Shown: positions 58,813-62,643 of the stretch, piece after piece
Layout: every line of letters starts with the position of its first letter
Numbering within the stretch: the first letter of the stretch is position 1
Origin: an uncultured bacterium
GTDB taxonomy: Bacteria > Patescibacteriota > Minisyncoccia > Phycocordibacterales > Phycocordibacteraceae
Assembly: GCA_937879955.1 (NCBI GenBank)
Contig: CALFMK010000001.1
Location: forward strand, 506,356-570,355
Direction of reading: 5' to 3'
DNA length: 64,000 nt
The notes under the pieces: generated by a model
Told to the model about the DNA's origin: nothing
The model's database searches: none
What the model saw: only the letters and a program-made list of their open reading frames with translations
Translations under genes and position numbers: made by a program

Positions 58813-59594
58813 CCTCTTACGTGTTAAAGACCAAGAAATTAGTAACCAAACGGAGCGGATAAGCGAAAGCCGTAAGGCTCTCGACACCGCCCCGCACGGG
58901 GCTTTTTTCTTGAAAGGGCACGCAGGTCGTTGACAGACGAATATGCAAATAGGTAATCAACGCCGCTAGGCGTGGACGTTCGCGTCCATGGCTGGCGGAT
59001 TGAATATTGCAGAATCACACAATCGTTAGAAAGTGGTGTTCAGGTTTCCGCACAGGAGACATGAAGGGTGCACGGTGGATGCCTAGGCTTGCGACAGCGA
59101 TGAAGGACGCGACTAATCAGCGAAATGCTTCGGGGAGGCGATTTGTAGCCTTTGATCCGGAGGTGTCCGAATGGGGAAACCCAACCAGCAATGGTTACCT
59201 CTCAATATTTTGTAGAGGAGCGAACCCAGGGAAGTGAAACATCTCAGTACCTGGAGGAATAGAAAACAACAACGAGTTGCGTTCCGTCTATTCGATGCTT
59301 CGAGTAGATGGAACGCGACTCTCGTGATTCCCTAAGTAGCGGCGAGCGAAACGGGAATAGCCCAAACCTGATACTTCGGTATCAGGGGTTGTAGGGCGGA
59401 AGCGCCGTACTTGATACGGCACAAGTTACAAAAGTTCTACATAGCAGAAGAAGCTGGAAAGCTTCGCCCCAGAGGGTAATGGCCCCGTATGCGAAATGTA
59501 AAACCCTTGTGAGCTTCCGATCCTGAGTAGTTCGAGACACGAATAGCTCGGATGAATCTGCCGGAACTAACCGGTAAGGCTAAATATGTCGCAG

Positions 59595-59640
<46 letters not shown>

Positions 59641-61079
59641 GAGAGGGGAGTGAAATAGAACTGAAACCGTGTACTTACAAAGGGTTAGGGTGGGCTCCGG
59701 TCCATCCTAGCGTGCCTATTGAAGAATGAGCCTGCGAGTTTATGTATGTCGCTTCGGCTAAGCCCGTTACGGGGCGGAGCCACAGGGAAACCGAGTGTTA
59801 ATAGCGCGTCCGTGTCATACATAAGACCCGAAGCCAGGTGAGCTTGCCATGAGCAGGGTGAAGTCTGTCGAAAGACAGATGGAGGCCCGAACCCGTATGT
59901 CGTACAACGCATTGGGATGACTTGTGGTAAGGAGTGAAAAGCTAATCGAACCTGGTAATAGCTGGTTCTCTCCGAAACATCTTTTGGGATGGCGTCGCGT
60001 GGTCCCCTTGGGGGTAGAGCACTGGAAGGGATGAACAGGGAGAAATCTCGTCATTCCTATCAAACTCCGAATACCAAGGATTATGAGCGCGGCAGTTAGA
60101 CGGTGGGGGCGAAGCTCCACACGTCGAAGGGGGAAGAGCCCTGGATCGCCAGTTAAGGTCCCTAAATCTACGCTAAGTACAACTTAAGGAAGTGAGGATT
60201 CATTGACAATGAGGATGTTGGCTTAGAAGCAGCCACCATTTAAAGAAAGCGTAACAGCTCACTCATCGAGAGTCCTTGCGCCGAAGATGATCGGGGTTAA
60301 GCGTAGTACCGAAACTGCGGGAATGGAGATCCTCCGGGATCTCCATTCGGTAGGAGAGCGTTCCGTTCTGCTGTGAAGCTAAAGGGGTGACCCATAGTGG
60401 AGCGTACGGAAGTGAGAATGCAGGCACAAGTAACCACAATGCGGGTGAGAACCCCGCACGTCGAAAGAACGAGGTTTCCTCAGCTATGACGATCAACTGA
60501 GGGTTAGTCGGGCCTTAGGGGATGGCGAAAGCCGCACCTGATGGACACAGGGTTAATATTCCCTGACCGATCATATGTGCGATGGAGTGACGGATTGCTG
60601 TATCTATGGCCCATTATTGGATTTGGGTTGGTGCCGTGAGGAGGCTTGGTAGGTAAATCCGCCAGGCGCTACTCCGAGCGGAAAAACAATGTTCTCCTTC
60701 GGGGGAGCAGAGCATAGAGAGCGCGGTTCCAAGAAAAACTTCTAAGCTTCAGCATATGACGACCGTACCGGAAACCGACACAGGTGTTCAGGTCGAGTAG
60801 ACTAAGACGAACGAGTGAGAGGTCCTCAAGGAACTCGGCAAAAAAGCGGCCGTAAGTTAGCGATAAGGCCTGCCCCTAGCAATAGGGGCCGCAGCGAAAG
60901 ATTTTCTGCCAACTGTTTACCAAAAACACAGCTCCCTGCGAACTCGTAAGAGGATGTATAGGGGGTGACGCCTGACCAATGCCGGAAGGTCAAGCAGGGA
61001 CGGTACATTGATTTCGATTGATGTGCTAGGCCCTATAAGCCCCGGTGAATGTCGGCGATAACTATAATCGTCCTAAGGT

Positions 61080-61275
61080 CCTGCATCTGAGCGATCGGAT
61101 GCAGGACGGATTGGGGCGGTTATAGGAGACCGTAAACAGTTCTGAGAAGATTACGTCATCAAAAGCTACCTCTTCAGACCGGAAGGTCTGTTGAATCCGC
61201 GACTCACATGAGAGGCCATACGTCGCGCCCCTAGCAATAGGGTGAAGATATGGTCCTACGTTAAAGGAATAGTAG
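61080..61275 (+). mobile_element. putative group I intron (about 196 nt, no ORF) in 23S domain IV
   Basis: interrupts conserved CCUAAGGU|AGCG; 5' exon ends in U, insert ends in G, contains GAAGATATGGTCC resembling group I P7/P9.0 consensus AAGAUAUAGUCC. Confidence 0.5.
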
Positions 61276-61936
61276 AGCGTAATTCCTTGTCTGGTAAGTT
61301 CAGACGTGCACGAATGGCGTAATGAGTGGAAAACTGTCTCGAGGACTTGCTCGGTGAAAATGCAATACCGGTGAAGATGCCGGTTACCTGTAGTTAGACG
61401 AAAAGACCCCAGGAGCTTTACTACAGCTTGGTATTGGGGTTGTGTGTCGTATGCGTAGCATAGGTGGGAGACTTTGAAGCGTACCTCTTGGGGTACGTGG
61501 AGTCGCCAGTGAAATACCACTCTTACGATGTGCAACTTCTAACCCGCGTAAGAACTACGTGGGGACAGTGCCTGGCGGGTAGTTTTGGTGGGGCGCTATC
61601 CTCCTAAAAAGTAACGGAGGAGTCTATTAAGGTTGGCTAGGCGCGAATGGAAACCGTGCCGATAGTGTAATGGCACAAGCCAGCTTAACTGTAAGGGGTA
61701 CATCCCGCACAGATGCGAAAGCAGAGCATAGTGAACCGATGGTCCGCCTTAGATGCGGCCAGAGATTAACGGATAAAAGTTACCCTGGGGATAACAGGCT
61801 AGTTCCGCCCAAGCGTCCATAGCGACGGCGGAGTTCGGCACCTCGATGTCGGCTCACCTTAGCGCGGGGCTGGAGAAGGTCCCAAGCGTATGGCTGTTCG
61901 CCATTTAAAAAGGTACGCGAGCTGGGTTCAAACCGT

Positions 61937-62249
61937 GTGGGGCTCGAATCTTCGGATTCGTTCCTCACACCGTTTGAATCCCTTCGAGATTTCTGTTGTC
62001 AGAATTCGAAAAAGTGCGAAAGAATGAGAGTGAATGTCTTTTCGTCTTGAAACTAAGATAGAACCAACCACGACACGGCGGCGTGTTCCTGAAAGGGGAC
62101 ACGGGAAGCTGACTGGTATCGGTGGAACCCTACTCGAAAGAGGGGCGACACCGAGGGAAGCCGAAAGGCGCCCGTAGAGACTGAACGTCAGACACCCGGA
62201 AGGGTGATATTACAGTCCGATCCTCCGAGTAATCGGAGCAAACGAAATG
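61937..62249 (+). mobile_element. putative group I intron (about 313 nt, no ORF) in 23S domain V at the I-CreI/I-CeuI-type site
   Basis: interrupts conserved AACGU|CGUGAGACAG; ends in G; contains GATATTACAGTCCGATCC resembling AAGAUAUAGUCGGACC of group I introns. Confidence 0.5.
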
Positions 62250-62643
62250 CGTGAGACAGGTTGGTCTCCTATCTACTACAGGCGTTGATTCTTGAGGAGA
62301 CTTGCCCCTAGTACGAGAGGACCGGGGTGAACTGACCTCTGGTCTACGAGCTGTCACGCCAGTGGCATCGCTCGGTAGCTATGTCGGGATGTGATAACTG
62401 CTGAAAGCATATAAGCGGGAAGCACGCTCCAAGATTAGGAATCGTTATGAGGCTCCTAGAAGATGACTAGGTTGATAGGCTTTAGATGGAAGCGCAGTAA
62501 TGCGTTGAGTCGAGAAGTACTAATATGCCCAGACTTCTGTGCGGAACTCTGTATGTCACATCTGATGATGCGTGACTGCAATATTGAATGGAGATCCTAT
62601 TTGCATATTCGTCCGTCTGCGAAGACGGAGAAAACGTGCGTAT

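Follow-up and report, generated by a model that had tools for sequence, protein, structure and literature searches.

Within the 64-kb stretch of DNA analysed here (the window; contig CALFMK010000001.1 of an uncultured bacterium of the Patescibacteriota), the 23S rRNA gene carries an intron-like insert of 196 nucleotides (nt) on the + strand (61080–61275) at position L1931, which is read here as a P4-P6-less group I derivative. The insert almost certainly descends from the lineage of group I introns at L1931 in Patescibacteria via loss of the entire P4-P5-P6 domain. Retained are the 5′ domain, comprising the 5′ hairpin, helix X, the internal guide and P2, and the complete P3-P7-P8-P9 pseudoknot core, including J8/7, a P7 with bulged A, and the terminal G (omegaG). 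In textbook descriptions, group I ribozymes use P4-P6 as their folding scaffold. Finding an intron in the 23S rRNA gene of Patescibacteria is by itself ordinary and already known; what we describe is a diversified natural family that has dropped P4-P6 and the U·G wobble at the 5′ splice site, yet in which selection within 23S rRNA has maintained the P3-P9 core, the guide and omegaG. The structural finding is solid and would come as a surprise to specialists in ribozymes.

Insertion site, homologues and loss of P4-P5-P6

The 23S rRNA gene (59050–62544) is 3,495 nt long, in agreement with the length of about 3.5 kb given by an initial annotation of the sequence, and scored 2345 bits against the 2,925-position Rfam model LSU_rRNA_bacteria (LSU, large subunit). 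Between model positions 1953 and 1954, within CCUAAGGU|AGCG, a block of about 199 nt found no alignment; the rest of the gene aligned end to end, and a 5S rRNA gene adjoins it. Alignment with MAFFT against E. coli rrl (L172) placed the 196-nt insert exactly between E. coli U1931 and A1932 (L1931). The rrl copy used has 2,903 nt, and the insert follows its position 1930, corresponding to U1931 in standard numbering. The boundaries are unique from the sequence, CCTAAGGT(61079)|CCTGCA...TAGTAG(61275)|AGCGTAATTCC. The 5′ exon terminates with U61079, the insert with G61275, and excision in silico gives GGTAGCGTAATTCCTTGTCTGGTAAGTTC. Thereby, the insert length, its location in a conserved segment, the U and G at the junctions and the restored 23S sequence, all proposed in the initial annotation, were confirmed. 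The interrupted rRNA strand is universally conserved and belongs to the subunit-interface region, and L1931 is a known group I insertion site (PMC1995217, PMC11270868). As also stated before, the insert is devoid of genes: on its + strand there is no open reading frame (ORF) above 26 amino acids (aa), an antisense ORF of 157 aa (61062–61535) had no significant Pfam match, and neither strand holds a meaningful ORF.

Relatives were collected from one genome per species by scanning for the S element followed by the 3′ exon within 5–35 nt, which yielded at least 119 loci. Among the matches listed, L1931 inserts form three size groups: about 700 nt, mostly from Acidimicrobiia and other Actinomycetota, with LAGLIDADG_1 proteins encoded in those that were checked; about 230–400 nt; and 178–210 nt, almost entirely from Patescibacteria. 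Searching metagenomes with three family motifs contributed another 52 loci. After removal of duplicates, 52 distinct sequences including the window were aligned (alignment A1, to which the family counts given below refer). The family of short L1931 inserts in Patescibacteria thus has at least 52 distinct members of 178–220 nt. Since 51 other distinct homologues from independent assemblies share the rRNA position with the window insert, the latter is more than a chance occurrence. The family was defined on A1 by the L1931 site, the 5′ hairpin, helix X, a guide G(C/U)UAC(C/U)U, P2 with a GNRA loop, P3 followed directly by (U/A)C-N(2-5)-AGAG and the P7 strand, AAGAUAURGUCC, and a P9 loop with AGGAA. 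The window insert carries all helices and every invariant column of A1, and is 84–90% identical to the inserts of L036, L060 and L057. Its 23S rRNA gene is about 95% identical to those of L120, L169 and L036 (a Paceibacterota metagenome-assembled genome), and the genes upstream of 23S are syntenic with the same three loci at about 78–80% nucleotide identity. On this basis, the window derives from a Patescibacteria member of the Paceibacteria type.

Longer relatives at L1931 are recognisable group I introns. The 707-nt insert of L022 matched the Rfam group I model RF00028 (E 3.8e-6), and the 249-nt insert of L083, from Patescibacteria, matched with 55.1 bits (E 1.3e-13), thereby exceeding the gathering score (50), and showed the complete series P3, J3/4, P4, P5, P4′, P6, J6/7, P7, P3′, P8, J8/7, P7′ and P9. 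For a direct comparison, the window and five family members were aligned with the canonical introns of L083, L119, L093, L096 and L094. On the 5′ side, the 5′ hairpin, GGAYU, GGGACGAUUAU, AAGCU(G/A)CCU, the GNRA hairpin, (A/G)RUCC and the 5′ strand of P3 aligned; on the 3′ side, this was the case for (C/G)AGAG(A/G)C(C/U)A(A/U)ACG, P3′, P8, GAAGAUAU(A/G)GUCC and P9. The canonical block between them, UAUAUGCUGGAAA...AAUCAGCAGGGAAG and P6 (about 70–85 nt), is gone in the short family and replaced by 5–10 nt. The structured 120 nt at the 5′ end were also considered as a relocated or permuted P4-P6. As all five canonical introns carry both this 5′ domain and a normal P4-P6, the 5′ domain is not a displaced P4-P6.

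The insert structure is under selection. On A1, 97.1% of the 3,064 cells of the proposed structure form standard pairs, compared to 34–43% in slid controls, in which the 3′ partners were moved by 1–3 columns. Compensatory double changes were found in 35 of 60 pairs, and the covariation score was 0.442 versus 0.05–0.07 in the slid controls; the observed values were reached by none of 500 shuffles. Without a given structure, RNAalifold recovered the 5′ hairpin, P2, P3, P8 and the pairing of the P9 loop with the 3′ exon. Unpaired core positions, presumably important for catalysis, are conserved as well, with AGA before P7, A.UACG after P7 and AAGAUAU of J8/7 invariant in 52/52 sequences, as are the blocks AGAG.C.AUACG and AAGAUAU.GUCC.

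The distances between introns were compared with those between the flanking 23S sequences for 20 hosts with clean flanks (940 nt). Both are correlated (Mantel r 0.87, reached by 0 of 2000 permutations), the intron evolving about 2.4 times faster than the flanking 23S. The correlation points to long vertical retention in working rRNA genes, although co-conversion of flanks during homing could inflate it. An exception is the window compared to L169 and L120, where the exons differ by less than 1% and the introns by 17–20%, mainly in the stems of the 5′ hairpin, P2 and P8; judging from these sequences, peripheral stems seem to turn over very fast or to be exchanged between lineages.

These data also bear on the question whether the 23S copy might be a pseudogene or an assembly artefact, so that the insert would be irrelevant to the working ribosome. 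The view is limited to the 64-kb window, in which no 16S rRNA gene is linked to the 23S gene. Nevertheless, we regard this explanation as scarcely credible, as the LSU model is matched over its full length with the 5S gene adjoining, many independent assemblies carry the same insert in a syntenic 23S gene, the divergence of the intron correlates with that of the host, and the rRNA copy number in Patescibacteria is usually one (PMC11270868).

Further inserts occur close to L1931 in several relatives. In L128, L134 and L147 the 3′ exon is broken by another insert after AGCGUAAUUCC (about L1942), while in L136, L144, L168 and L170 foreign sequence is located directly 5′ of CCUAAGGU (about L1923). 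Micro-exons of 8–11 nt are left between the introns in those relatives.

Helices and junctions of the insert

All features are located on the + strand. The 5′ exon ends with CCUAAGGU (61072–61079; E. coli 1924–1931), of which AGGU (61076–61079) pairs with the guide to give P1. The insert starts with the 5′ hairpin (61080–61105), which has 11 bp and a GCGA loop (61091–61094), was obtained in the minimum free energy (MFE) fold and by RNAalifold, and is compensatory in 11/11 pairs. The 5′ strand of helix X (GGAUU, 61108–61112) pairs with AAUCC (61194–61198), thereby enclosing the guide and P2, and the 3′ strand directly adjoins P3. Helix X covaries (GGACU/AGUCC, GGAUU/AAUCC, UAACU/AGUUA) and was found in canonical relatives, too. 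Inside it, a small hairpin UUAU...GUAA followed by a conserved ACAG (61120–61135) has 96.6% of its cells paired with one-sided changes only, and a 3-bp hairpin with GAGA tetraloop (61141–61150), specific for the window subfamily, has compensatory changes in 3/3 pairs (UCU/AGA, CCC/GGG, GUU/GAC and others). Two other pairings in this region were discarded: for GAGA(A/G) at 61144–61148 with CUCUU, covariation instead gives the 3-bp GAGA-loop hairpin, and CGGU/ACCG (61117–61120 with 61129–61132) is not conserved, with an A·C mismatch in most relatives. The internal guide GCUACCU (61165–61171), the exact reverse complement of AGGU|AGC, is followed by the P2 hairpin (61172–61193), in which 7/7 pairs covary, and which was also predicted by RNAalifold. 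Its loop GGAA (61181–61184) is of the GNRA type, with invariant G and A in A1.

The 5′ strand of P3 (CGCGAC, 61198–61203) pairs with GUCGCG (61222–61227), supported by covariation and RNAalifold (6 bp), with 100% of cells paired and 4/5 pairs compensatory. It is followed by the 10-nt junction UCACAUGAGA (61204–61213), which has an invariant 3′ AGA and stands in place of J3/4, P4, P5, P6 and J6/7. The 5′ strand of P7, G-A(bulge)-GGCCAU (61212–61219), pairs with 61250–61256 (100% paired, CG↔UA in four sequences) and corresponds in the alignment to the RF00028 R element of L022 and L083; G61214 is the counterpart of the G in the guanosine-binding G-C pair. P8 (CCCUA-GCAA-UAGGG, 61229–61242; CCCUAGCAAUAGGG) covaries (helices 9–10), was predicted by RNAalifold, and its counterparts in relatives align to P8 of RF00028. 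J8/7 (UGAAGAU) and the 3′ strand of P7 (AUGGUCC) constitute the classical S element (61243–61256), where AAGAUAU and GUCC are invariant in 52/52 sequences and relatives align to the RF00028 consensus UgAAGAUAUAGUC. The group I-like motif and the hairpin pointed out in the initial annotation were both recovered, the former as J8/7-P7 element (GAAGAUAUGGUCC) and the latter as P8 (CCCCUAGCAAUAGGG). Within the S element, GAAGATATGGTCC is located at 61244–61256, and AAGATATGGTCC has its sole match in the window there. As 0.22 chance matches of the one-mismatch motif are expected per 64 kb, the motif alone is weak evidence.

P9 (UAC/GUA, 61257–61274; three pairs covary) has a loop AAGGAAU (61264–61270) complementary over 7 bp to AUUCCUU (61282–61288) of the 3′ exon. 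This helix is 97% paired with A-U↔G·U changes only, and RNAalifold predicts the same pairing. The last base of the insert (omegaG, 61275) is G in 51/52 family members. The 3′ exon begins with AGCGUAAUUCCUUGUC (61276–61291; E. coli 1932 onward), which contributes AGC to the guide pairing (P10) and AUUCCUU to the P9 loop pairing. The fold suggested by the initial annotation, P3-P7-P9 with a P1 formed by an internal guide, held for P3-P7-P9; the guide, however, is located away from the 5′ end and pairs with AGGU, not with UAAGGU. Regarding the 3′ ends of canonical introns, eight of 13 in Patescibacteria at L1931 (L016, L041, L049, L082, L083, L088, L094, L111) end with ...CGAAA or ...CGUUA directly before exon AGCG, so that they appear to finish with A where omegaG would be canonical.

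Three other classes of elements were considered and rejected. A group II intron would be characterised by 5′ GUGYG, 3′ AY, six domains including domain V and a length above 400 nt; the insert begins with CCUGC, terminates with UAG, has 196 nt and gave no match to Rfam group II models. An RNase III-processed intervening sequence (IVS) was dismissed because of the universally conserved site 1931/1932 and because no end-joining helix occurred in the MFE fold, the RNAalifold prediction or the covariation analysis. An archaeal bulge-helix-bulge intron did not fit the junction anatomy on hand inspection.

Guide pairing, the lost wobble and the probable route of excision

The guide GCUACCU covers both P1 (ACCU/AGGU) and P10 (GCU/AGC) of the ligated junction AGGU|AGC. 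Its U, A and C are invariant in A1, and the variants GUUACCU and GCUACUU still pair via G·U. Covariation of guide and exons is impossible due to the invariant exons; in the 5′ exon-guide helix (helix 1), 100% of the cells are paired. The assignment of the guide can be followed through homology: the intron of L077, which has no 5′ domain, begins with UAAUAGCUAGCCUUAG, and its GCCUUAG pairs with exon CUAAGGU including the canonical U·G wobble. As the homologous guide motif, canonical relatives among the Patescibacteria carry AAGCUGCCU, and members of the short family AAGCUACCU. Opposite the splice-site U, a G was present at this guide position in 14/14 canonical Patescibacteria-type relatives examined (13 and L012); L059 also carries P4-P6. 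The G·U wobble at the splice site has its receptor in J4/5 of P4-P6, and hence the loss of the receptor and the loss of the wobble go together.

Excision of the insert by group I two-step transesterification, performed by the retained P3-P9 core and possibly helped, is in our estimation probable. Splicing and the use of group I chemistry are what we infer from the observed anatomy, homology, covariation and conservation. In the pre-23S rRNA, the guide would form P1 with the terminal AGGU of the 5′ exon, and guanosine bound by P7 would attack after U1931. Afterwards, omegaG would take the place of guanosine in the pocket, while the same guide would hold AGC of the 3′ exon (P10), aided by the 7-bp pairing of the P9 loop with the 3′ exon. 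Exon ligation would restore the universally conserved CCUAAGGUAGCG. With the P4-P6 scaffold and the J4/5 wobble receptor gone, and the wobble G correspondingly now an A (U-A pair), folding and docking would be left to the larger 5′ domain and the GNRA loops within it, to the additional pairings with the exons and, possibly, to a helper. Candidate substitutes for the scaffold are the 5′ domain with three GNRA loops, the GNRA loop of P8, the U-A pair, the exon pairings, a protein, or P4-P6 of another intron.

This route is favoured because the guanosine site of P7 with its bulged A, J8/7, P3/P8, omegaG and the two-exon guide have been kept by selection, and because the insert splits a conserved strand in hosts that mostly possess a single rRNA copy, while rRNA inserts of Patescibacteria are reportedly removed (PMC11270868). 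Specifically, removal of rRNA inserts from the transcripts of Patescibacteria was reported by Brown 2015, as cited in PMC11270868. Engineered deletions of P4-P6 keep catalysis, which resides in P3-P7 (Ikawa 2000, as cited in PMC6257700 and PMC2879505), and a G:C pair at the 5′ splice site as well as omegaA are tolerated in self-splicing Diderma introns (PMC3679873). It is conceivable, if doubtful, that the insert is a natural, self-sufficient group I ribozyme splicing an essential rRNA in vivo without P4-P6 and G·U wobble. Such a ribozyme would work with the P3-P9 core, an enlarged P1-P2 domain and additional pairings to the exons alone. If true, the 'minimal, presumably ancestral' form, hitherto represented by engineered deletions only, would have an equivalent in living cells.

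Several observations weigh against group I excision. P4-P5-P6 is absent between the 5′ strand of P3 and P7 in the window insert, where only UCACAUGAGA is found, and a T4 td mutant without P4-P6 was about 1000-fold slower (PMC2879505). A is opposite the splice-site U in 52/52 short-family sequences of A1 (a regular-expression count caught 50). Whichever of the two possible P1 arrangements is taken, this U has an A as its partner in the window, either A61168 of the guide or A61106 of the 5′ hairpin, the stem of which can continue across the splice site (U61079-A61106, G61078-C61107) in a fold alternative to P1. On this structural model, the splice-site U can be locked in the 5′ hairpin instead. 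The change from G to A and the loss of P4-P6 may be a single historical event. As the short family was monophyletic in 52/100 bootstraps, with a neighbour-joining tree that is not clean, the perfect association of the A with P4-P6 loss is not independent statistical evidence. RNAalifold also preferred an alternative helix of 61113–61120 (GGGAC.GAU) with 61250–61257 (AU.GGUCCU, the 3′ strand of P7). It would compete with P7, shows one-sided A-U/G·U changes only, and might be a folding switch or a coincidence. Finally, the search with RF00028 recommended by the initial annotation gave no match at E≤10 on a 351-nt slice (61000–61350), nor was there a match at the gathering score (50 bits) across the whole window. 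By itself, this failure is weak evidence, because the L2593 intron of the same gene, which reads as a complete group I core, was also missed. Taken together, the insert lacks three defining group I features, namely P4-P6, the U·G wobble and a covariance-model score at the gathering threshold, and has the others that were looked for. The initial annotation as a group I intron is therefore kept as far as the intron-like character and the known group I site are concerned, but the insert is not a standard one, having neither P4-P5-P6 nor the U·G wobble.

Loss of P4-P6 and of the wobble resembles ribozyme decay, and the insert might thus be a catalytically dead remnant, kept in mature 23S rRNA as a folded expansion segment near H69–H71. 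Its stable fold (z = −3.3, MFE fold) would suit such a segment, and the L1931 intron of Simkania was reported as unspliced, judging by the title ('An unspliced group I intron in 23S rRNA') under which Everett 1999 is listed in PMC11270868. By analogy with that report, which also speaks against excision in general, an insert at L1931 may be tolerated in mature rRNA. A passive expansion segment, however, needs no catalytic core, omegaG or guide, and hence the conservation of core positions, omegaG and the junction-matching guide across 52 diverged copies, in which peripheral stems change freely, counts against retention. In addition, the universally conserved subunit-interface strand would stay split, and rRNA inserts of Patescibacteria are reported absent from transcripts, as far as summarised in PMC11270868. 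We therefore consider a dead remnant quite unlikely.

Removal of the insert might alternatively depend on host machinery with no self-splicing involved, either by dedicated protein-dependent splicing, such as has been suggested for degenerate group I introns of lichen fungi, or by endonucleases leaving a fragmented 23S rRNA in the manner of RNase III-processed IVSs. Group I introns of lichen rDNA, which lack about 100 nt and do not self-splice in vitro, are removed in vivo (PMC8527467). In the window, the 5′ junction lies within a long perfect hairpin, and IVS-like hairpin inserts are present near the 5′ end of the same gene. On the other hand, the strictly kept guanosine-binding P7, J8/7 and omegaG serve RNA catalysis and not a nuclease, the insert ends are not paired with each other as in IVS stems, the site is not among the variable helices in which IVSs occur (PMC11270868), and no candidate protein was identified. 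Host-driven removal is unlikely on these grounds.

A further alternative is group I chemistry with a scaffold supplied in trans by P4-P6 of another pre-rRNA intron, e.g., the one at L2593. This second insert of the 23S gene (61937–62249, 313 nt) follows a U, ends with G and had no RF00028 match at E≤1. Inspection by eye gave a complete group I core including P4-P6: P3 GCUGAC/GUCAG, P4 UCGGUG/CACCGA, P6 GCC-GAAA-GGC, P7 GACUG/CAGUC, P8, and J8/7 GAUAUUA. Doudna and Cech reportedly demonstrated in 1995 that a separate P4-P6 RNA complements a deleted Tetrahymena ribozyme in vitro. An L2593 insert was found in 32/34 assessable short-family hosts, the two exceptions having another insert between the sites. 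It is, however, also present in 7/10 hosts of canonical L1931 introns, so that the co-occurrence is not clearly above the Patescibacteria background. Complementary contacts were not identified, and J3/4 and J6/7, the strands docking P4-P6, are down to 5–10 nt, which makes a scaffold in trans very unlikely.

Comparison with known systems and further features of the window

Group I introns at L1931, with or without LAGLIDADG genes, are known from Simkania, Thermotoga, Synechococcus, organelles and Patescibacteria (PMC1995217, PMC11270868). These canonical introns (site 23IS7 in Patescibacteria, including the I-ShaI intron) share with the window family the site after U1931, the R and S elements, P3, P7, P8, P9 and omegaG, and those of Patescibacteria additionally the 5′ domain and the guide position; the long forms encode LAGLIDADG_1 proteins. 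In contrast, the window family has no P4-P5-P6, no ORF and an A in the guide in place of the wobble G, and the window insert remains below any RF00028 threshold.

Engineered P4-P6 deletions of the Tetrahymena and T4 td introns ('minimal catalytic domain', Ikawa, Shiraishi and Inoue 2000, as cited) share the P1/P2-type periphery and P3-P9. Whereas these are laboratory constructs with about 1000-fold lower rates, the window family is natural, diversified and under purifying selection in an essential gene, and differs by the altered splice-site pair and the extra exon pairings. Degenerate introns in the nuclear rDNA of lichen fungi are likewise short (about 200–230 nt), derived from group I, vertically retained and lacking sequence needed for catalysis (PMC8527467). 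They reside, however, in nuclear genes of eukaryotes, at different sites, and have been shown to lack self-splicing, while the window family has lost the whole P4-P6 and fully conserved the P3-P9 core. RNase III IVSs resemble the insert as short, ORF-less elements of 23S rRNA missed by Rfam intron models (PMC11270868), but they occupy variable helices (e.g., H9, H25 or H45) with their ends paired as a processing stem. The insert interrupts a universally conserved strand, has ends that are not paired with each other and contains a group I core.

Full-text searches, with most subscription journals outside their coverage, returned no description of a natural group I lineage without P4-P6, which is absence of evidence only. 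A survey of Patescibacteria with RF00028 left short non-matching inserts as 'uncharacterized short insertion sequences' (PMC11270868). As surveys of this kind leave such elements uncharacterized, intron counts in Patescibacteria are underestimated. If spliced, the family would offer a compact (about 190 nt) natural system for analysing the minimal RNA of group I catalysis, the choice of the 5′ splice site without wobble receptor, and whether proteins or co-resident introns compensate for the lost domain.

In the window, the 59 kb upstream and the 1.2 kb downstream of the 23S-5S pair contain no 16S rRNA gene, and the rRNA genes appear to be unlinked (16S versus 23S-5S). The region from 9.8 to 21.8 kb holds eight scattered tRNA genes. 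The GC content is about 56–66% outside the rRNA gene, which seems high for Patescibacteria. Besides the two inserts described above, the 23S gene contains two short ones near E. coli positions 228 and 291, located at 59271–59322 (52 nt) and 59394–59440 (47 nt), respectively. The former is a long near-perfect hairpin, and both resemble extended helices or intervening sequences of the RNase III type.

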